Below, piece after piece: positions 37,968 to 48,686 of a stretch of DNA of 64,000 nucleotides. Where the stretch lies: assembly GCA_963664815.2 (NCBI GenBank), contig CAXXHB010000003.1:704001-768000 (forward strand). Direction: 5' to 3'. The notes under the pieces are model-generated. The model worked only from the letters and a program-made list of their open reading frames with translations, had not been told where the DNA came from and searched no databases. The DNA is from Spirochaetota bacterium (lineage in GTDB: Bacteria > Spirochaetota > UBA4802 > UBA5550). The first letter of the stretch is position 1, and the number at the start of each line of letters is the position of its first letter. Position numbers and translations under genes: made by a program.

Positions 37968-40007
37968 TCAGTCCTGTTCTTTATTGTTAAGTTTAAAAAT
38001 GTTGACTGTTTCCAGAAGACAGGAGGCGCTTTTCCTGTTATCATTTATCAATTCGGCCACTTTATTAACCTGATCCACAATTTTTACCAGATGTTCATTG
38101 ATGTATCCGGCTTCCATCGCACTGCTGCCGCTGGATTGGGCAATCTGATCAACTGACTGCACCACATGCGCGATCATTTTCTTTAGAGCTTCACTTCCCA
38201 GATTAAATTCATTCATAAGACTGGCGATGCTTTCCGCGTCGGCATTATACTGTTCTCCGGTCTCTACGAAATTCCTGTAATCCTGTGCTATATTCGTGTC
38301 AATAAAGTTTACCAGCTCACTTGAGCTTTCTACCAGATACTGAACTGATTCATATACCTGGCTGGTAATGGTCTGAATATCACTGGCGGTAACTGAAGAC
38401 TGCTCTGCCAGTTTTCTGACTTCTTCTGCAACGACGGCAAAACCAAGTCCAGCTTCACCGGCTCTTGCAGCTTCAATAGCTGCATTTAAGGCCAGCAGGT
38501 TGCTCTGTTCTGCAATACCGAGTATTTCACCTGTAAGCATATTTATTCTGTGGACAACCTGGGCCTCATCTACTGCTTTTGTCAGTTTATTACGGGTTTT
38601 TTCCAGCAGAGAGGCTGTATTGGCATTGGATTCAGTTGCTGTAGCCTTTAATTTAACCGCTCTTTGAAGCATCTCCCTGGCCTGAATAGCGCCGGATGCC
38701 GCATTATCACTGGATTTTTCCAGCATTCCGGAAATATCCCTGGAGGCTGCATTGAGCTCTTCGGTAGACGCGGCTGTCTCTTCCATGCCGGCTGATATCT
38801 GCTCTATCTTTAGCGATATCTCCTGCACGGAAACCTGAAGTTGTTCAAAACTGCTGCGTGCCTTGTCAGCGCTTTCCTCAACACTCTTACTTTCAGTCAA
38901 TACACCCTGTACAATACCCTGAAGGTTTGTTACCATGCCGGCTGAATTCCTGCTTAATTGACCTATCTCATCATTGGTGCTGAGGCTTTTTATATCAACC
39001 GCAAGATTACCTTTTGCTATTTCCATGGTAACCCGGCTTAAGTCTTTTAATGGCTCGGAAATCTTCTTCCCGAAAAATAAGGCCAGGGCCGGCACGATCA
39101 ATATAGCTGCAAGGATTGTAATGTAAACATACCATGATGTGGTTTTAACCGGTTTCATGTACAGATCAACTGTCGTGGCGCACCATATATACCAGCCCTG
39201 CCCTGAGTCTGCATTAAAGGTATATGGATTAAATGCCATCAGTTTGGGCACACCATTCAGGGTATAGAAAGCATGATCAGCCTTATTCAGCTTCATTCGT
39301 CCAAAAATTTTTTCCAGGCCATTGGTCTGTGTTTTATAGTCATAAGTAAGAATGTAACTCTTGTTGTCATGCGATATTACAAAACCGTCATTGGAAATAA
39401 TGCCGAAGATAAGTTCCTGGTGATACGGATCATGGCTGATGGTGGCACTTGTTAAAATTTCATAATCAATTGCGATAAGCACTCCTCCGATGATTCGTCC
39501 CTGATTATTATGTACAGGTGTGGAAAGAACAGTGACAGCTTTGCCGTTGGAAACTGTGCGGAATACCGGGCTGAGTATCTGCTTATCTGATCTGATCATC
39601 TGAGTAAAATAAGGTGTTTGAGTGAAATTTGAAAATGGAATAGTCTGTGCGCTGTCATAGACTACTGTACCATTCGCCCTGACCAGCAGAGAATCGGTCA
39701 ACAATCCTTTGCCATGATCAATAAGGTATTTAAGATTACTTTCCAGGATGGAATTTCTGCCCCCCCCCTCCAGGGATGAGATTATAACAGGCTGTCTGGA
39801 TGTAGTCTGCATCAACATTTGTAAAGTATTGATTTTCTCGCTCAATAAGATCGTGCGGTCATTGGCCAGACTGGCCATAGTATCAACCTGTTCGCTGTTT
39901 ATAGTATTAGAAAAACGATTAATGCTAAGAAAGCCGATAAATCCAACCGGCACCAGGGCCAACAGTATAGAAAATATTACAATTTTTATAAATAATTTGT
40001 TTAACAT
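37968..40007 (-). CDS. Methyl-accepting chemotaxis protein
   Basis: Two TMs, [38 protein letters not shown]. Confidence 0.95.
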
Positions 40008-40894: not shown

Positions 40895-41434
40895 TTATAA
40901 ACGCGCGTTTTTCTCTGTCTGTAACGATGTTGAAACGGTATTGAAACGGTTTTTAACAGGGTCTTCATACTGCTTAAATACCGTTTCAACAGATGTACTT
41001 TTATTTTCTACCGTATAAATATTACTCTGTCTATTTGCTGATCTGCTGTTTTCAGAAGAACCGCAGGTATAATCTGCAATATCACCGGAAGCGGATACAG
41101 CCGCTATATCCACTGTTACGCCGCTGCCCGATGATGTCACGGGTGAACCGGGTACAATACCACGAAGGTATTCAGACATAAACAGGTTATACCCTGACTT
41201 TTTCTTCCTCTTCGCTCTCAACCGGTACATATTTTTCTCCTCTTCGGGGAGTACCTGCCATGCCTTTACGCTGCCGCTGAAATTACCCCTGCATTTTACC
41301 TGCGGCTCTGTGCGCGGATTCGCTGGTATTGTACGTCTTTTGATGTAGGTTTTTCCGTAGCGCCTGTAAAGCACAAGGCCTTCCAGACCTCCATGTGCTG
41401 TTCTGAGAAAGGGATGAAGCTTTGTTCCTGCCAT
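40895..41434 (-). CDS. Basic hypothetical protein (NPRT-x-x-Q-x3-R-x2-F motif family)
   Basis: AAGGAG RBS; strongly basic N-terminal ~90 aa and a low-complexity tail. Confidence 0.7.
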   Translation of the reverse strand: MAGTKLHPFLRTAHGGLEGLVLYRRYGKTYIKRRTIPANPRTEPQVKCRGNFSGSVKAWQVLPEEEKNMYRLRAKRKKKSGYNLFMSEYLRGIVPGSPVTSSGSGVTVDIAAVSASGDIADYTCGSSENSRSANRQSNIYTVENKSTSVETVFKQYEDPVKNRFNTVSTSLQTEKNARL

Positions 41435-41853: not shown

Positions 41854-42306
41854 ATGAAAAAAAATGAAGAAGTCAGCGCCGAGCAGTTTTTAAGAATTAT
41901 CAATAAGCTGATTTTTAACAGTAAAAACAATGTTCTTGTTAGTGGTGATAATCTCAAACTTTTTCCTTCAGAAATCCATCTGATTCTTGTTATCACTGAT
42001 GGTAAATCAGAAAATTACAGCAAAATTGTTCAACAGCTGGGAGTAACAAAAGGTGCGGTGTCACAGACCATTTCGCGTCTTGTTAAAAAAGGAATTTTAG
42101 AGAAGAGAAAAAAACCTGATAGTAATGATCTGACAATCCTGTTGACTGATAACGGCAAAAAGGTATTTAAGCAATGTAAAAAATTCCAGGAAGGTATTTA
42201 TAAACAATTATCATCCTACATGACTTCCCTTACTGAAAAGGATCGTGGTGTTATCGGAGAATTTTTAAATTATATAGAGGCTGAATTAAACTCCGTTAAA
42301 CCCTGA
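41854..42306 (+). CDS. MarR-family regulator
   Basis: LFPSEIHLI...LGVTKGAVSQTISRLVKKG...LTDNG winged HTH; TTGACA at 41793. Confidence 0.92.
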   Translation: MKKNEEVSAEQFLRIINKLIFNSKNNVLVSGDNLKLFPSEIHLILVITDGKSENYSKIVQQLGVTKGAVSQTISRLVKKGILEKRKKPDSNDLTILLTDNGKKVFKQCKKFQEGIYKQLSSYMTSLTEKDRGVIGEFLNYIEAELNSVKP

Positions 42307-42444: not shown

Positions 42445-42475
42445 ATACCCCCGCCGCCGAAGGCGGCGGGGGTAT
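42445..42475. terminator. GC-rich 14-bp hairpin after marR
   Basis: ATACCCCCGCCGCC-GAA-GGCGGCGGGGGTAT. Confidence 0.7.
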
Positions 42476-42530
42476 ATAATATTCCTTTTGACGATAGAAT
42501 ATATGTTCAGGAATTATTACTGATTTTAGA

Positions 42531-42591
42531 TTGACATTTTATTGTTTAGATGCTAAATGGATTTTATTGTTTAGTATCTAAACAATAAAAT
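42531..42591 (+). promoter_or_regulatory. Promoter and palindromic operator of the merB-like gene
   Basis: TTGACA at 42531; perfect repeat ATTTTATTGTTTAG-TAT-CTAAACAATAAAAT at 42561-42591; a second partial copy at 42536-42558. Confidence 0.8.
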
Positions 42592-42609
42592 ATAAAACGA
42601 GGAGATATT

Positions 42610-43374
42610 ATGAAACGTTTGCTGTTTGGCTATAAGCGGCATATTTTGCCGGTACCCTGGGGTCTTTTCAGGAAAATGGCATCTGCCAAAGCCGGAAAAA
42701 ACAGACGGGCTTTCGGCAGACTCGATGATGAACATCGCATGGTGCATCACTTTGTGGTTCGCGAGCTGCCGGGATTTGCAAGGCCGATGGGGCCTGAATA
42801 TGTTGCCGGTATGCTGGGTATGGATCTGGGCCGGGTGGAAACAATAATGGACAACCTGGAACGCCGCAAGGTGTTTTTATACCGCCCCGGCGGGAGGGAT
42901 GTCGAATGGGCATACCCGGTGACCGTGGTGCCAACCCCGCATCGTGTTGAGTTTTCCACCGGTGAGACCATCTGGGCAGCCTGAGGGACAGATGCAGTTG
43001 CAACGCCCTTCGTGCAAGGACGCTTACGTAGTGAACCACTGACTTTCAATATCAGGACAGAGTGTGCATGCTGCGGACGGGAAATCCGGTTCTGTATGAA
43101 CAGCGATTTAACCTTTACCCTGGAAGACGAAACTTCTGACCCGGTATTCTTTGTGCCGATGATCGATCTGACCAAACTCAAGGCGCCGAGTATTATTAAT
43201 GATTTTTGAATGAAGTCTGTATTCTTCTGGTCAGAAGAACATGCAGGAAATCACCGGAAAAAGTATGGAGGGAAAAGCGGTTTATATCTTACCCTCGAGC
43301 AAAACGCATTCCTGGCTCCACTGGCGCAGGAAGTGCCCTTTGAGTTTAACCGCTGTCCCATGGGTGATAAATGA
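42610..43374 (+). CDS. MerB (organomercurial lyase)-like selenoprotein, 254 aa with two UGA-encoded Sec (U125, U200)
   Basis: GAGGAG RBS. One continuous frame: wHTH, AYPVTVVPTPHRV, IWAA-UGA-GTD, RTECACCG, IINDF-UGA-MKSVFFWSEEHA. The UGAs align with MerB YAWC96ALD99 and FC159CHVHFFAS, and a hairpin follows each UGA. Confidence 0.85.
43002..43026 (+). promoter_or_regulatory. Candidate bacterial SECIS for UGA 42982
   Basis: AACG-C-CCUU-[CGUGC]-AAGG-A-CG(C)UU hairpin; the loop starts 26 nt after the UGA and has G at position 2. Confidence 0.5.
43217..43246 (+). promoter_or_regulatory. Candidate bacterial SECIS for UGA 43207
   Basis: CUGUA-UUCUUCU-[GGUC]-AGAAGAA-CA-UGCAG; the GGUC loop is 19 nt after the UGA and resembles the E. 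coli fdhF apical loop. Confidence 0.7.
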
Positions 43375-43429
43375 ACACTTAAATTTCAGAGCTGCCCTCC
43401 GGTTTTTGCATTACAGGAGGGCAGCTGGA

Positions 43430-43618
43430 TCAAATATGAAATTTATTGGTCGCTGTTCCGTGAAGGAGAATCAGTGGTCTGCTGCTTCTGTTTCCGATGA
43501 AGGTTTCACCCAGGACTGTATCAACGCTGATGAAACGCCGTTGAACAGGCCACTTTTCAAGGATTACGGTATAGTAAGCAAGTATATCCTCTTTCCCTTT
43601 TTTACTTCTGTATATCAT
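43430..43618 (-). pseudogene. 3'-truncated alpha/beta hydrolase
   Basis: YxxILEKWPV...VDTVLGETF...PLILLHG start typical of hydrolases; stops after 62 aa with no GxSxG. Confidence 0.65.
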
Positions 43619-44042
43619 GTTCTTCCAGCCCGTTAAAAAGCTGCAGCATAGCGGCTACAGATGAAACATCGCCCCTGAATATGAAGCGCCCATGTCTCTC
43701 CTTCTCGTAGTAGGCAAATTCGAACCTGACGCCGGTTCCCTGGCCCAAGCTGTTAAGCGCTGCTATAATTGAATTCGAGATAGAAGATGCCCTGCTGAAG
43801 TCAGCCTTAAGGTCAATATGGGCATATGCGGCTGTGCCGCTGCTCCCGGCGCCTATGGTTTCATCCGGATCGAAGAGATCCTTCTCCCCCTCCATGAATC
43901 GGCTCAGAGCGTCACCTGTGACCCTCCACTCCCTGCCGACCTTCACTGCGCCAAGCCTTCCCTCGCGGATAAACCTCTGGACTGTTTTGATGTGCAGTCC
44001 GCATAATTCTGAAATCTCCTGTGCTGAATAATATTTTTCCAT
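43602..44042 (-). CDS. Excisionase-like HTH_17 DNA-binding protein
   Basis: YSAQEISELCGLHIKTVQRFIREGRLGAVKVGREWRV; start at ATG 44042. Confidence 0.85.
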   Translation of the reverse strand: MEKYYSAQEISELCGLHIKTVQRFIREGRLGAVKVGREWRVTGDALSRFMEGEKDLFDPDETIGAGSSGTAAYAHIDLKADFSRASSISNSIIAALNSLGQGTGVRFEFAYYEKERHGRFIFRGDVSSVAAMLQLFNGLEEHDIQK

Positions 44043-44191
44043 TTGCTGACCTTTGTAATATATAGTATTAATAAGTAACAATAGGTAATAAGGGGTAATT
44101 TTGTCAAGAAAAAATTTACTTAAATGTGGAGTATTGTCCACCATGGGGTATCATAGATTTAATCTCCTGAATCAGAGTGGATTCGGAATTG

Positions 44192-45370
44192 CTAATCTAT
44201 GATAGACAGATTGTTTTTAGAAATTTGAGTATCTCTGTAAGTCGTGGGTGTCATACCTATGATTTTCCTGAAAGCGGAATTAAATGTAGTCTTGGAATTA
44301 AATCCTGATCTGAATGCTATAGAAAGAATATTTGCATCTTTATTGGCGGGGTCACTTAATATATTTATCGCTTCCTGAACTCTGTATTCGTTGATGAAAG
44401 TATAAAAATTTTTATTCAGGAGATTGTTGATCACCATTGAGAGATGATGTATAGGAATATCAGTCTCTAAAGATAGATCCCTTATTGTGAGATCTTCATT
44501 CAGATAAGGTTTATTATTAATCATAAACAGTTTTAATTTATCGAGATATTCATTATGTTTATTAATATCAATGTTTTGTTTGCTGTATTTATTTGTTTCG
44601 GATACTATTTGTGGATTGTCAATTTCCACATTCATAACAAGATTTTGCTTAAATATTTCAGGCTGATTTATAATATAATAGATAGTTATAAAAAATATTA
44701 TTATAAATAACAGTATATTTATAATAAAAGCAAGCGGTTCAATTATGTTGATTATTTTAAATGCAGACAGCCAGAATCCGATACACCAGTAAATAAGTGA
44801 AACTAAAAGCAGAGTGGTTAATAAAAACAACCAGTTAAAGCTAATTTGTTCAATATCAGAATAGTAATTTTCAATCTTCCTGTTATATTTTTTTATTATA
44901 ATTAAAAGTGTGTAAAAAATATAACAGCTGGAATTAATTAAACCCACTCCAAGAAGAAAAACGAAATATGTCTGCAATTTGCCGGATGCTGCTATTTTAA
45001 AATTGTAGTGGAGTGTTGAAATCAGAAAAATAATCAGGATTATAAAAAATACTATAAAATGCAGTAAGTGAACAGGTTTAAATCTGTCAGTGAGCCCTGT
45101 TATAAATATTGCATAAAAATATATAAACACACCCGCAACCGAAATACCTGGTACGGAAAAAAATGTAAGATAAAATGCAATTGTTTTATAATCCATTATA
45201 TGGAGATAGTGGGTAAAATGAGTTGATGCAATGATAAGAATAAATAATGCGAGATTAATATTTGCTTTTTTATTTTTTTTCATGAAGAGAAGGATAAATA
45301 TTAAAACTATTGATATAGAGAATACAAAAATGAAAAGGAAATTATACACCGGCCAGATATAGCTCTCCAT
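44192..45370 (-). CDS. Membrane-anchored AraC-family regulator
   Basis: Multiple TMs; HHLSMVIN...NFYTFINEYRV...SGFNSKTTFNSAFRK. Confidence 0.9.
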   Translation of the reverse strand: MESYIWPVYNFLFIFVFSISIVLIFILLFMKKNKKANINLALFILIIASTHFTHYLHIMDYKTIAFYLTFFSVPGISVAGVFIYFYAIFITGLTDRFKPVHLLHFIVFFIILIIFLISTLHYNFKIAASGKLQTYFVFLLGVGLINSSCYIFYTLLIIIKKYNRKIENYYSDIEQISFNWLFLLTTLLLVSLIYWCIGFWLSAFKIINIIEPLAFIINILLFIIIFFITIYYIINQPEIFKQNLVMNVEIDNPQIVSETNKYSKQNIDINKHNEYLDKLKLFMINNKPYLNEDLTIRDLSLETDIPIHHLSMVINNLLNKNFYTFINEYRVQEAINILSDPANKDANILSIAFRSGFNSKTTFNSAFRKIIGMTPTTYRDTQISKNNLSIID

Positions 45371-45578
45371 TATATACCTCTTGATCAATAATAACAAAAT
45401 AAAATAATTTTAAACAAATTATTCTTTTAATTCATTAACCCGGTTAAGTACAGCAATTAATTTTTTATTTCAAACGCTTATGAGTGCGTCCTTTTAAGTT
45501 CGTTCGACAAAGGATACAATTTCAATTATAATCTGTATGTTTTAAAGATACATTATTTATAAACATACAGGTTAAAAA

Positions 45579-48500
45579 ATGAACATAGCAAAACTCGCAA
45601 TCAATAGGCCGATATTGATTTCATCAATAGTGGCTTTAATACTGATACTGGGATTGATCTCATATCATAAAATAGGAATGGAACTTTTACCGGATATGAC
45701 ATTCCCGACTTTAGGTGTAACAACTATTTATAAAGGTGCTTCACCTGAAGAGATTGAGCAGCTTATAACAAAACCTCTGGAAGATCAGCTGGGTACACTG
45801 TCAGGATTAAAACATTTAAGTTCGCAAAACATCGAGGGTCTCTCAATAATTACTCTTGAGTTTAACATGGAGGTCAACATTGATGTTGCTTCACAGGATG
45901 TCAGGGATAAGATTAATGTTGCCAAAAATAATCTGCCTGATGATCTTGAAGATGATCCGCTTGTTGAAAAATTTGATCCGGATTCAAATCCTGTAATGAG
46001 AATTGCTCTTATCTCTGATCAATCTCCTTCGGAAATATATGATATTGCAAAAGAGATAATAAAACCACAAATTGAACGGATTCAGGATGTAGGGAGTGTT
46101 AAGATCATCGGAGGAACCCGCAGGGAAATACAGGTTGAAATTGACCAGAACAGACTTAATGAATACCAGATCCCTATGATTCAGGTTGTAAACCAGATAA
46201 AAAGTTCCGGGAAAAACATTCCTGTAGGGAAAAAAGAAAATGGCCTGAACCAGACTTTGTTCAGGTCAATGGGTGAGTTCAACAGCCTTAAGCTGATAGA
46301 AGATACAATGATTTCATTTTCGGGAGATATCGGTAATTCAGTTTCTGTCAGGACATTTGGAGCAGTAAAAGATGGAGTTGAGGATGCTGCAAGTAAAGGA
46401 TATATTTATTATCCGTCACATACCCGTGATTCATCCATTAAAGATAAAAAGGTTTCGAGTTTATACCTCGATATAATCAGGCAGACTGGTACAAATACGG
46501 TTAAAGTTACAGCGCGGGTTAAAGACAACCTGGCGGGTATAAATGAAAATCTGAAAAAACGGTATACCAATTCAAAAGTTGAAATTATTACAGATCAGTC
46601 AAGGTGGGTAAAAATAAACGTAGACGAAGCTGTTTTCTCCATAGAACTCGGCATCTTACTTGCTGTTTTAGTTGTTTACCTGTTTTTAGGCAACATCAGA
46701 TCTACCATAATAACTGCAATAGCAATACCGAACAGTCTTCTTGGCGCAGTTATACTGATGAATACAATGGGATATACCTTTAACGTAATGACTCTGATGG
46801 CACTCTCCCTTGTCGTCGGTCTTCTCGTTGATGATGCGATTGTTGTAAGGGAAAATATTTTCCGTAAACTGGAGAACGGCGATGATTCCTTTACAGCGGC
46901 TGAACATGGAACTACCGAGGTAATGCTTGCTGTTATTGCAACGACCCTGGCAATACTGTCTGTATTTTTTCCAATTGGAATGCTCAGCGGTGTAATAGGC
47001 AAGCTGTTTAAACAGTTCGGATTCACTGTTATTTTTGCACTGGTAGTCAGTCTTTTTGATGCTCTTACAGTAGCTCCTTTCCTGAGTGCTTATTTCGCAG
47101 GTGATGGTAAAAAAGCGGATAATATATTCATAAGAGGTTTTGAAAAATTTCAGGATAAAATGGATAAGATTTATATAAAAATTATGGGGGTGTGTTTAAA
47201 TCATCCTTTAATGATTATCCTGATTACTCTGTTTATTTTTATAACCAGCCTGGGTCTTCTCCCTTTTGTAAAAAAAACATTCATGCCATCTACTGATATG
47301 GGGGAGTTCGGTATAAATATTGATATGCCTGCAGGGTCAAGCATTGATGGGACTGAAGATACTCTTAACAGTATTATTGAAAAAATTAAAAACATCCCGG
47401 ATATTGCTTATCTGGGCGTTACCGCAGGTACGGCAAATGGTGAGATTACTAAGGGCGATATTTTTTGCGCTTTAAAAAAAGATCGTAAAAGCAGTACCGA
47501 TGAAAATAAAGAAAAAATTCGGATTATTCTGAAAGAGTTTGCCTATGCAAGGCCAACTGTAAACAATACTGTCGGAGGGCCTCCCGGCGCGCCCTATTCT
47601 CTGGTTCTTTCCGGGAATGATCTTAAAGTGGTAGAAGAATATGCGGCGAAAATAATGGAGAAGGTGAAGAGCATACCTGATCTGATTGATGTGGATTCCA
47701 CTCTGAAGAAAGGTAGTCCTGAGCTTAGAATAGTTTACAATCCAGAAAAGATGATGTCGGTGGGGGCGTCAAATATTGCATCTGGCACTGAACTGAGATA
47801 TAATATTGAAGGTGAGGTTGTCGGGCAATACCGGGAAAAAAATATTGATTACGATATCCGGGCAAGGCTTAAACCGTCGCAAAGGGATCTGAAAAAGACT
47901 TTTAATGAGACAAGAATCCCTAATAAGAATAACCGCCTGATCCCTCTTAACCTGGTCGCTGAAAACAAACTGACCACAGGTTACACAAAAATATTCAGAG
48001 AGGACAGAGAGTATATAGTGAAAATAACAGCTAACCTGAACAAAAATGGCGCTGTAGGAAATGCTATGGAGCAGACAAGAATGATTATTAAAGAAGTATC
48101 ATTGCCCTCAAGTCTCAGATACAGGTTCAGCGGTCAGTCCGAAACGTTTTCTGAAACGGCATCAAGCGTTATTTTTGCCCTGATAATGGCTATTGTATTC
48201 ATCTATCTCATACTTTCAAGTCTTTATGAATCCTTTGTTACACCTGTAACAATTCTACTTGCCATACCTCCGGCACTTACAGGAGCTTTCTTTGCCCTTT
48301 TTTTGTCCGGATTCATGCTTGATATGTATAGCATGATTGGACTTGTTATGTTAATGGGACTTGTAACAAAAAATTCCATATTGCTGGTTGATAATATAAT
48401 GCATGGTGTTAATTCCGGACTCGGTAGAAAAGAAGCTATTCTCCAGGCAGGGGAAAGAAGGCTGAGGCCAATTCTGATGACAACATTTGCCATGATTGCG

Positions 48501-48686
48501 GGGATGTTTCCGCTTGCAATCGGTTTTGGTGAAGCAGCGCAAATGAGGCAGTCGATGGGAATATCTATTCTGGGGGGGGTAATAATTTCAACTCTTATCA
48601 CTCTTATCGTTGTGCCGGCAGTGTTTGAATATGTTGATAGATTCAGGGTTGCAACTGAAAGCCGGATACTCGTAAGAAGAAAATAA
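45579..48686 (+). CDS. RND efflux transporter permease (AcrB/CzcA family)
   Basis: GASPEEIE, GLLVDDAIVVRENI, KNSILLVD and RLRPILMT motifs; 1035 aa. Confidence 0.95.
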   Translation: MNIAKLAINRPILISSIVALILILGLISYHKIGMELLPDMTFPTLGVTTIYKGASPEEIEQLITKPLEDQLGTLSGLKHLSSQNIEGLSIITLEFNMEVNIDVASQDVRDKINVAKNNLPDDLEDDPLVEKFDPDSNPVMRIALISDQSPSEIYDIAKEIIKPQIERIQDVGSVKIIGGTRREIQVEIDQNRLNEYQIPMIQVVNQIKSSGKNIPVGKKENGLNQTLFRSMGEFNSLKLIEDTMISFSGDIGNSVSVRTFGAVKDGVEDAASKGYIYYPSHTRDSSIKDKKVSSLYLDIIRQTGTNTVKVTARVKDNLAGINENLKKRYTNSKVEIITDQSRWVKINVDEAVFSIELGILLAVLVVYLFLGNIRSTIITAIAIPNSLLGAVILMNTMGYTFNVMTLMALSLVVGLLVDDAIVVRENIFRKLENGDDSFTAAEHGTTEVMLAVIATTLAILSVFFPIGMLSGVIGKLFKQFGFTVIFALVVSLFDALTVAPFLSAYFAGDGKKADNIFIRGFEKFQDKMDKIYIKIMGVCLNHPLMIILITLFIFITSLGLLPFVKKTFMPSTDMGEFGINIDMPAGSSIDGTEDTLNSIIEKIKNIPDIAYLGVTAGTANGEITKGDIFCALKKDRKSSTDENKEKIRIILKEFAYARPTVNNTVGGPPGAPYSLVLSGNDLKVVEEYAAKIMEKVKSIPDLIDVDSTLKKGSPELRIVYNPEKMMSVGASNIASGTELRYNIEGEVVGQYREKNIDYDIRARLKPSQRDLKKTFNETRIPNKNNRLIPLNLVAENKLTTGYTKIFREDREYIVKITANLNKNGAVGNAMEQTRMIIKEVSLPSSLRYRFSGQSETFSETASSVIFALIMAIVFIYLILSSLYESFVTPVTILLAIPPALTGAFFALFLSGFMLDMYSMIGLVMLMGLVTKNSILLVDNIMHGVNSGLGRKEAILQAGERRLRPILMTTFAMIAGMFPLAIGFGEAAQMRQSMGISILGGVIISTLITLIVVPAVFEYVDRFRVATESRILVRRK

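Follow-up and report, generated by a model that had tools for sequence, protein, structure and literature searches.

Can two in-frame UGA codons supply both catalytic nucleophiles of a MerB-type organometal lyase? The question is raised by positions 42610-43374 (+) of a 64,000-nucleotide window of DNA (contig CAXXHB010000003.1, positions 704,001 to 768,000; assembly GCA_963664815.2) from a Spirochaetota bacterium. The mechanical list of open reading frames (ORFs) cuts this region into 42610-42984, 43012-43209 and 43210-43374. An earlier note, made from the letters alone, had read these pieces as one frame interrupted by TGA at codons 125 and 200, had proposed an enzyme with selenocysteine (Sec) at both catalytic positions, and had warned that standard annotation would split the gene. 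The coordinates were confirmed: the region is a single frame of 254 codons in which TGA at codons 125 (42982-42984) and 200 (43207-43209) are the only internal stops, and a third TGA, codon 255 (43372-43374), is the true stop. The peptide motifs quoted in the note were found exactly as written in the read-through protein. Gene callers do split the gene, and databases hold 124-125-aa "hypothetical proteins" in its place. Judged from comparative sequence data, the product is almost certainly a genuine two-Sec protein of the MerB fold. For the full statement, that it is a MerB-fold selenoprotein with a Sec-Asp-Sec site acting as a regulator-controlled organometal lyase, we estimate a probability of about 0.55.

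Both internal TGA codons, and the coding sequence after each, are conserved among relatives. Orthologues were found in three of 60 related genomes at 75-77% identity. All three carry TGA in the same two columns, remain conserved to the C-terminus and end at the same place as the window gene (TGA in two, TAA in one), with conservation lost past codon 255. Ratios of nonsynonymous to synonymous substitution (dN/dS, Nei-Gojobori) were 0.08-0.15 upstream of the first TGA, 0.06-0.22 in the segment that the two TGAs enclose and 0.05-0.13 downstream of the second, with synonymous sites close to saturation (synonymous differences per site, pS, 0.46-0.83). A scan of a genome collection holding one genome per species gave 49 loci at 41-80% identity, whose titles name Spirochaetota, Deltaproteobacteria or Thermodesulfobacteriota, Acidobacteriota, Nitrospirota and Anaerolineae. 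TGA occupied both sites in 46 of the 49, 74-75 codons apart. The other three were frameshifted in the fetched DNA, one of them being a second copy in a metagenome-assembled genome (MAG) that also holds an intact copy. Near-identical copies with the same neighbours were seen on two contigs of one MAG (L028 and L031), one intact and one frameshifted after about residue 165; the pair may represent duplication, strain variation or assembly error. Sampling of 301 genomes drawn evenly from the phylum of one carrier placed the gene in 23. The 24 matches comprised 22 with two TGA codons, one with three and one partial second copy with a single TGA. The homologue with three in-frame TGA codons lies at G351:C7:1570257-1570964; the third could be a further Sec, or the match could overrun its stop codon.

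The reach of the family in protein libraries was assessed by an exhaustive hidden Markov model (HMM) search of 1.84 billion protein representatives, which returned 1103 matches at E<=0.001. Among the best 150 of these, 93 stop exactly at residue 124, and several fragments of 70-75 aa cover precisely residues 126-199. Where library members have a public name, it is "hypothetical protein". Some representatives have Cys at site 1 (codon 125) and end at residue 199; others combine Ser at site 1 with Cys at site 2 (codon 200), and Cys at site 2 was seen in P0002 and P0006. One representative carries Trp at each of the two sites, the outcome expected of a table-4 gene call, and some (P0005, P0012) have lost both catalytic residues. 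Metagenome DNA from a related branch (80 loci kept of at least 434 confirmed) gave 67 TGA/TGA, seven Cys/TGA and five TGA/Cys loci, with one cut by a contig end. The Cys codons were TGC or TGT at site 1 (7/80) and TGC at site 2 (5/80), and the two sites were 75 codons apart in 78/80 loci. These natural U/Cys and Cys/U variants (contigs L092, L097, L109, L120, L161 and L083-L088, L093) offer, beside the U/U form, ready-made comparators for each Sec in Hg-C protonolysis. In a tree of 53 sequences (35 U/U and 18 hand-picked representatives, trimmed to roughly their first 200 residues), the U/U, C/U and S/C forms made up one ingroup with support of 100/100 and the degenerate forms fell outside it; the tree did not resolve a single origin of U/U or its order relative to C/U. 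The earlier proposal was thus exposed to two findings, TGAs and downstream sequence that are not conserved in relatives and homologues that lack Cys or stop at the first TGA, and the data went the other way on both, with double TGA in 46/49 loci, purifying selection after each TGA and Cys variants at site 1 or site 2. Its single-gene picture needs amending: the gene is real, and it belongs to a large family instead of being an oddity of one genome.

Each internal TGA is followed by a hairpin resembling a Sec insertion sequence (SECIS), as had been suspected from the window alone. Both lie 13-20 nt after their UGA, inside the coding sequence. Hairpin 1 (43002-43024, +) has a stem of 43004-43010/43016-43022, a CGUGC loop (43011-43015) and an outer pair 43002/43024, with one C.A mismatch in the window copy. 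Across 45 distinct sequences 91.4% of its cells were paired, compared with 35-61% when the partner was slid; a GC to UA double change occurred in three sequences, and the covariation score was matched by 0/500 shuffles. Hairpin 2 (43217-43244, +) has a core stem of 43222-43228/43233-43239, a GGUC loop (43229-43232) and a lower stem of 43217-43220/43241-43244. Pairing reached 94.6% of cells across 47 sequences, compared with 41-63% for the slid partner. UA to CG double changes were present at two of its pairs, in three and four sequences, one double change coupling the replacement of Trp by Arg to a synonymous change in a Ser codon; the count of double-change cells was matched by 0/500 shuffles. 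Synonymous variation was suppressed over both elements, with normalised synonymous-codon entropy of 0.225 at codons 132-138 and 0.371 at codons 204-211 versus 0.821 for the rest of the gene. The lowest sliding entropy windows of the gene were exactly the two hairpin regions, and 0/20000 permutations were as low. No comparable conserved element accompanies the third TGA, the stop. Both the spacing from the UGA and the presence of G in the loops agree with what is usual for bacterial SECIS elements, and we take the GGUC loop of hairpin 2 to resemble that of E. coli fdhF.

The selenium machinery that the earlier note had named as a check (selA, selB, selC, selD) is present: the genome, 96.2% complete, encodes selA (474 bits), selB (324 bits), selD (370 bits) and tRNA-Sec (70 bits). 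Across the family, selA scored above cut-off in 46/48 carrier genomes, and it did so in 279/301 genomes of the phylum sample. As a stop codon TGA is in normal use in this genome, where it closes 387/1314 long frames. The selD gene (G000:C3:2287335-2288261, L001) itself contains one in-frame TGA, so that SelD is a selenoprotein here. Besides the clear tRNA-Sec on C2, a second match to the tRNA-Sec model (G000:C3:2365656-2365741, L014) scored 49.8 against a gathering score of 47 and may be another long-arm tRNA. We infer that Sec is inserted in vivo at codons 125 and 200; SelB and tRNA-Sec would decode both UGAs, each with its own hairpin, and the third TGA would terminate translation.

Fold and active site were addressed with Sec entered as Cys for the family-search programs. 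The read-through protein matched Pfam MerB (PF03243) over residues 106-232 at 44.8 bits, above the cut-off of 27, as the earlier note had expected of it. A Pfam MerB search across the whole of the genome gave zero matches; the window gene itself was missed and the controls were silent too, so that this zero carries no weight. An AlphaFold2 model built on a 35-sequence alignment reached a predicted local distance difference test score (pLDDT) of 91.2 and a predicted template modelling score (pTM) of 0.88. In a Foldseek comparison with the PDB, every one of the top 11 matches was a MerB or MerB2 chain (E 6e-11 to 1.3e-6), with the next match at E 0.14. These 11 aligned over 203-223 columns, the winged-helix N-terminal part included, with template modelling (TM) scores of 0.70-0.78 normalised to the target.

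Direct profile-to-PDB alignment, with chain numbering checked by counting, placed U125 at Cys96, D128 (GAT, 42991-42993) at the proton donor Asp99, U200 at Cys159 and C152 (TGT, 43063-43065; the Cys of ECACCG) at Cys117 of E. coli MerB. This agrees with the assignment of the triad and of the Cys117 region made from the motifs alone. U200 aligns with the first C of FCC in the E. coli enzyme. All catalytic-triad positions are occupied, with Asp kept and both Cys replaced by predicted Sec, which conserves the positions and would alter the chemistry. D128 was invariant, in 35/35 aligned sequences and 80/80 metagenome loci; C152 was at least 90% conserved in the homologue alignment, with Ser in some homologues. 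The clade of the window gene also conserves a C-terminal Cys (FEFNRCP; NRCP at residues 247-250) and the CACC cluster at residues 152-155. Members of a larger deltaproteobacterial clade have CAHC instead of CACC, end near FGF and lack the C-terminal Cys. The NRCP and CACC cysteines may be clade-specific metal hand-off residues.

The protein shares its fold with MerB (E. coli plasmid R831b; PDB 3F0O, 3F2F, 1S6L) and MerB2 (5C17), and keeps the FFxSxxxA-type motif that follows site 2 in MerB. It differs from MerB in having predicted Sec for both catalytic Cys, about 20 extra N-terminal residues and no accompanying mer operon or MerA; its hosts are strict anaerobes, many of them with hgcA. On sequence and context, a canonical mer-operon MerB (EC 4.99.1.2) is excluded for this protein.

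A MerB-like selenoprotein is already known as SaoL; what is new here is the double catalytic Sec form. As described in the available text of the preprint, SaoL contains a single Sec, within a CU motif where MerB has Cys159; it keeps Cys at the Cys96 equivalent and belongs to an SAO locus of nine genes (Haft and Gwadz, bioRxiv 10.1101/2022.07.06.499078). The two have in common the MerB fold, Sec at the Cys159 equivalent, anaerobic hosts and, as far as that account extends, database truncation at the UGA. The differences are two Sec instead of one, F-U instead of C-U at site 2, U instead of Cys at site 1, and a neighbourhood consisting of a regulator only. The window protein scored 37.6 bits against the SaoL model (NCBIfam NF040728; cut-off 140), in keeping with the view taken earlier that it is not SaoL. 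The nine-gene SAO neighbourhood was not seen in 50 loci, with the SAO family models not searched individually. Of the 119 selenoprotein families in Table 1 of an inventory from 2026, SaoL, with one Sec, is the sole MerB-type entry (PMC13188914). The same table lists MbdU, MduS and TsoB, bacterial proteins with two or three Sec, which indicates that multiple insertion is possible; they belong to other folds and families, none of them MerB-type, and their NCBIfam models gave no match at E<=1. No description of a two-Sec MerB was found in the full-text literature, a coverage that leaves out most subscription journals and paper supplements.

By analogy with MerB, the protein is most likely a Sec-based organomercurial lyase, with the substrate read across from that enzyme. 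An organometal compound, most likely methylmercury or some other organomercurial, would be bound through its metal by the two selenolates. Protonation of the carbon by Asp128 would then set the hydrocarbon free, with Hg(II) staying behind on the two Sec. MerA is absent, and Hg(II) would therefore have to pass to cellular thiols or sulfide. Selone mimics of MerB are described, in the parts of the sources at hand, as cleaving Hg-C bonds faster than their sulfur analogues (PMC11639659; PMC10114901). Where the earlier note spoke of a stand-alone two-Sec lyase or metal-binding protein, the fold, the triad and the two Sec have stood up; lyase activity and substrate are carried over from MerB, and we put cleavage of the C-Hg bond as the physiological role at even odds.

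Control of the gene on demand is suggested by its surroundings. A MarR-family regulator (41854-42306, +; Pfam MarR) lies directly upstream on the same strand. Between the two genes is a putative promoter/operator (42531-42604, +), with TTGACA at 42531, nested inverted repeats and an AGGAG ribosome-binding site at 42600-42604. The repeat finder located a perfect 14-nt inverted-repeat pair (42561-42574/42578-42591) just before AGGAG. A consensus promoter scan did not call the TTGACA site at 42531 and called a weaker site at 42488-42517. A perfect 14-bp G+C-rich hairpin at 42445-42475 (+), also from the repeat finder, separates the MarR gene from the promoter and appears terminator-like; a terminator scan did not call it, its T-run criterion being unmet. 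We read the upstream region as a repressor-controlled promoter, at which the adjacent regulator would probably act through the palindromic operator. The same MarR-type protein cluster lies upstream on the same strand in 15/50 loci; a MerR-type helix-turn-helix (HTH) protein takes its position in 9/50, and a thioesterase lies downstream in 5/50. Beyond these regulators and the thioesterase, there were no recurrent neighbours across the 50 loci. Results for four upstream ORFs with doubtful coordinates (L036, L029, L061 and L062) were set aside.

The wider surroundings in the window are a methyl-accepting chemotaxis protein (MCP) gene (37968-40007, -), an ORF of no assigned family (40895-41434, -), an excisionase-type HTH gene (43602-44144, -), an AraC-type gene (44192-45397, -) and an AcrB-type pump gene (45579-48686, +). 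The gene is absent from 7/7 same-genus genomes, which together with the excisionase HTH and AraC-type genes downstream hints at acquisition on a mobile island. A G+C-rich hairpin at 43390-43426, 18 nt past the stop (-24.5 kcal/mol, z -4.05), has no clear T-run and lacks conservation among orthologues; either a terminator or a repeat element would fit. Two antisense ORFs (123 and 144 aa; 42668-43181, -) overlap the gene and recur in homologous loci, and appear to be a side effect of sense-frame conservation, not genes.

A link to mercury comes from HgcA. The genome encodes a full-length HgcA outside the window (G000:C3:3894582-3895559, L074; 411 bits, cut-off 275), and the organism is therefore a putative mercury methylator. 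HgcA was above cut-off in 36/48 carrier genomes. Within the phylum sample, HgcA at E<=1e-70 was present in 13/23 carriers and 81/278 non-carriers (odds ratio 3.2, Fisher p 0.0095), a p value that overstates the evidence because relatives are not independent; above the cut-off the counts were 12/23 and 79/278. Use of Sec does not explain the enrichment, since nearly all genomes of this sample use Sec. In the genome of the window, 3.1 Mb separate the gene from hgcA.

Several results weigh against the full reading of a two-Sec organomercurial lyase under regulator control. A look-up of sequencing runs listed four holders and none recorded as RNA. Scores against the curated MerB equivalogs (NCBIfam NF009710 and NF033555) were far under cut-off (28.8 vs 193 and 27 vs 200) and identity to solved MerB structures was only 16-20%, so substrate specificity is not transferable from MerB. 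The regulators gave HTH-level matches only in NCBIfam, under every metal-specific equivalog cut-off. As the earlier note had remarked of the window, mer genes are missing: none of merA, merR, merT and merP occurred within 6 kb in the 50 loci, and the best MerA match in the genome reached 140 bits against a cut-off of 454. The association with HgcA is an enrichment and not a rule, partial and confounded by relatedness. HgcA above cut-off was lacking in 12/48 carriers, including four of the five with Acidobacteriota record titles; in the order of the window organism it is common in any case (4/4 carriers and 29/57 non-carriers, p 0.12), which makes that contrast uninformative; and the gene and hgcA shared a contig in 0/13 carriers with both positions seen. 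Single-sequence folds of the two hairpins were not significant (z +0.49 and -1.31), and Rfam gave zero matches for 42500-43500 at E<=1. It is the comparative data that carry the argument for the hairpins. Nor does the proposal account for what would become of Hg(II) held so tightly as an Hg(Sec)2 product.

The alternative that survives best, which we nevertheless think unlikely, is a non-catalytic or single-turnover trap or chaperone for soft metals, whose Sec-Asp-Sec site sequesters or passes on Hg(II), methylmercury or another thiophilic metal. A pair of selenolates would be a very strong ligand for Hg(II), and the genome lacks a MerA-type acceptor to take it over. The degenerate relatives P0005 and P0012 persist without both catalytic residues; the fold is therefore also used non-catalytically. 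MerB is reported, in the accessible part of the preprint, to bind other metals at its site and to become a copper binder by one substitution (Haft and Gwadz, bioRxiv 10.1101/2022.07.06.499078). Simple binding, however, would not need the proton-donor Asp, which is invariant throughout, and two Sec insertions per molecule would make a costly stoichiometric trap.

Slightly less likely again is a lyase for another carbon-metal or carbon-metalloid bond, with organotin, organolead, organoarsenic, organoselenium or organotellurium compounds as substrates in place of organomercurials. The distance of the family from the curated MerB equivalogs, the roughly one quarter of carriers without HgcA, and regulators that are not MerR proper are all compatible with such a substrate. 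The authors of SaoL voice the same doubt over its Sec-bearing MerB site, in the text available (bioRxiv 10.1101/2022.07.06.499078). Against this, HgcA is enriched among carriers, and arsenic, tin and other metal genes are not recurrent nearby. Protonolysis of the Hg-C bond is also, to our knowledge, the sole characterised chemistry of the MerB fold.

A redox enzyme cycling between di-selenol and diselenide (or a selenenyl-sulfide), with no role for a metal, appears very improbable. Both Sec are predicted to share one site, and a redox function is the presumed role of most bacterial selenoproteins, according to the part of the inventory consulted (PMC13188914). The fold is nevertheless that of MerB and not thioredoxin-like, Asp is invariant, and the two Sec are 75 codons apart with no UxxC or CxxU motif. 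Hardly credible is a pseudogene with two nonsense mutations, which the earlier note had already thought unlikely, or TGA decoded as something other than Sec: the split gene calls, the 124-125-aa database fragments, the three frameshifted loci of 49 and the one representative with Trp at both sites stand against dN/dS of 0.05-0.22 after both TGAs, the same TGAs across several phyla, hairpins conserved with covariation, Cys variants at each site, TGA as a normal stop in the genome and the presence of Sec machinery.

The reading we prefer, a Sec-based organomercurial lyase, bears on how methylmercury is turned over in anoxic settings. MerB is the one enzyme known to us to split methylmercury at its Hg-C bond. 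In environmental surveys, merB serves to mark demethylation and hgcAB to mark methylation. The present family is widespread (1103 library representatives, 23/301 phylum genomes, at least 434 metagenome stretches) and is annotated solely as short hypothetical proteins, and it would therefore have escaped merB surveys, to which the enzyme is invisible because gene calls stop at the first UGA. Anaerobic demethylation pathways are described as still unvalidated, with their enzymology and the lack of a "MeHg-specific MerB" (MeHg, methylmercury) named as open problems in the sections seen (PMC10114901). A large mer survey reports, in the part available, zero MerB-only genomes that encode HgcAB (PMC8261052).

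For selenium biology, the protein would stand out as a rare case of an enzyme with Sec predicted for both catalytic nucleophiles. For annotation, one protein of 254 residues replaces two or three fragments. It is a tentative and rather doubtful suggestion that many mercury-methylating anaerobes carry a Sec-dependent enzyme of MerB type to demethylate, or to handle, the methylmercury that they make, unseen by merB surveys. If true, the claim that HgcAB is never encoded in MerB-only genomes would fall, as far as the available text of that survey makes it (PMC8261052). The family would then be a candidate for the unexplained mer-independent degradation of methylmercury in anoxic sediments, and selenium supply would be linked to net methylmercury production.

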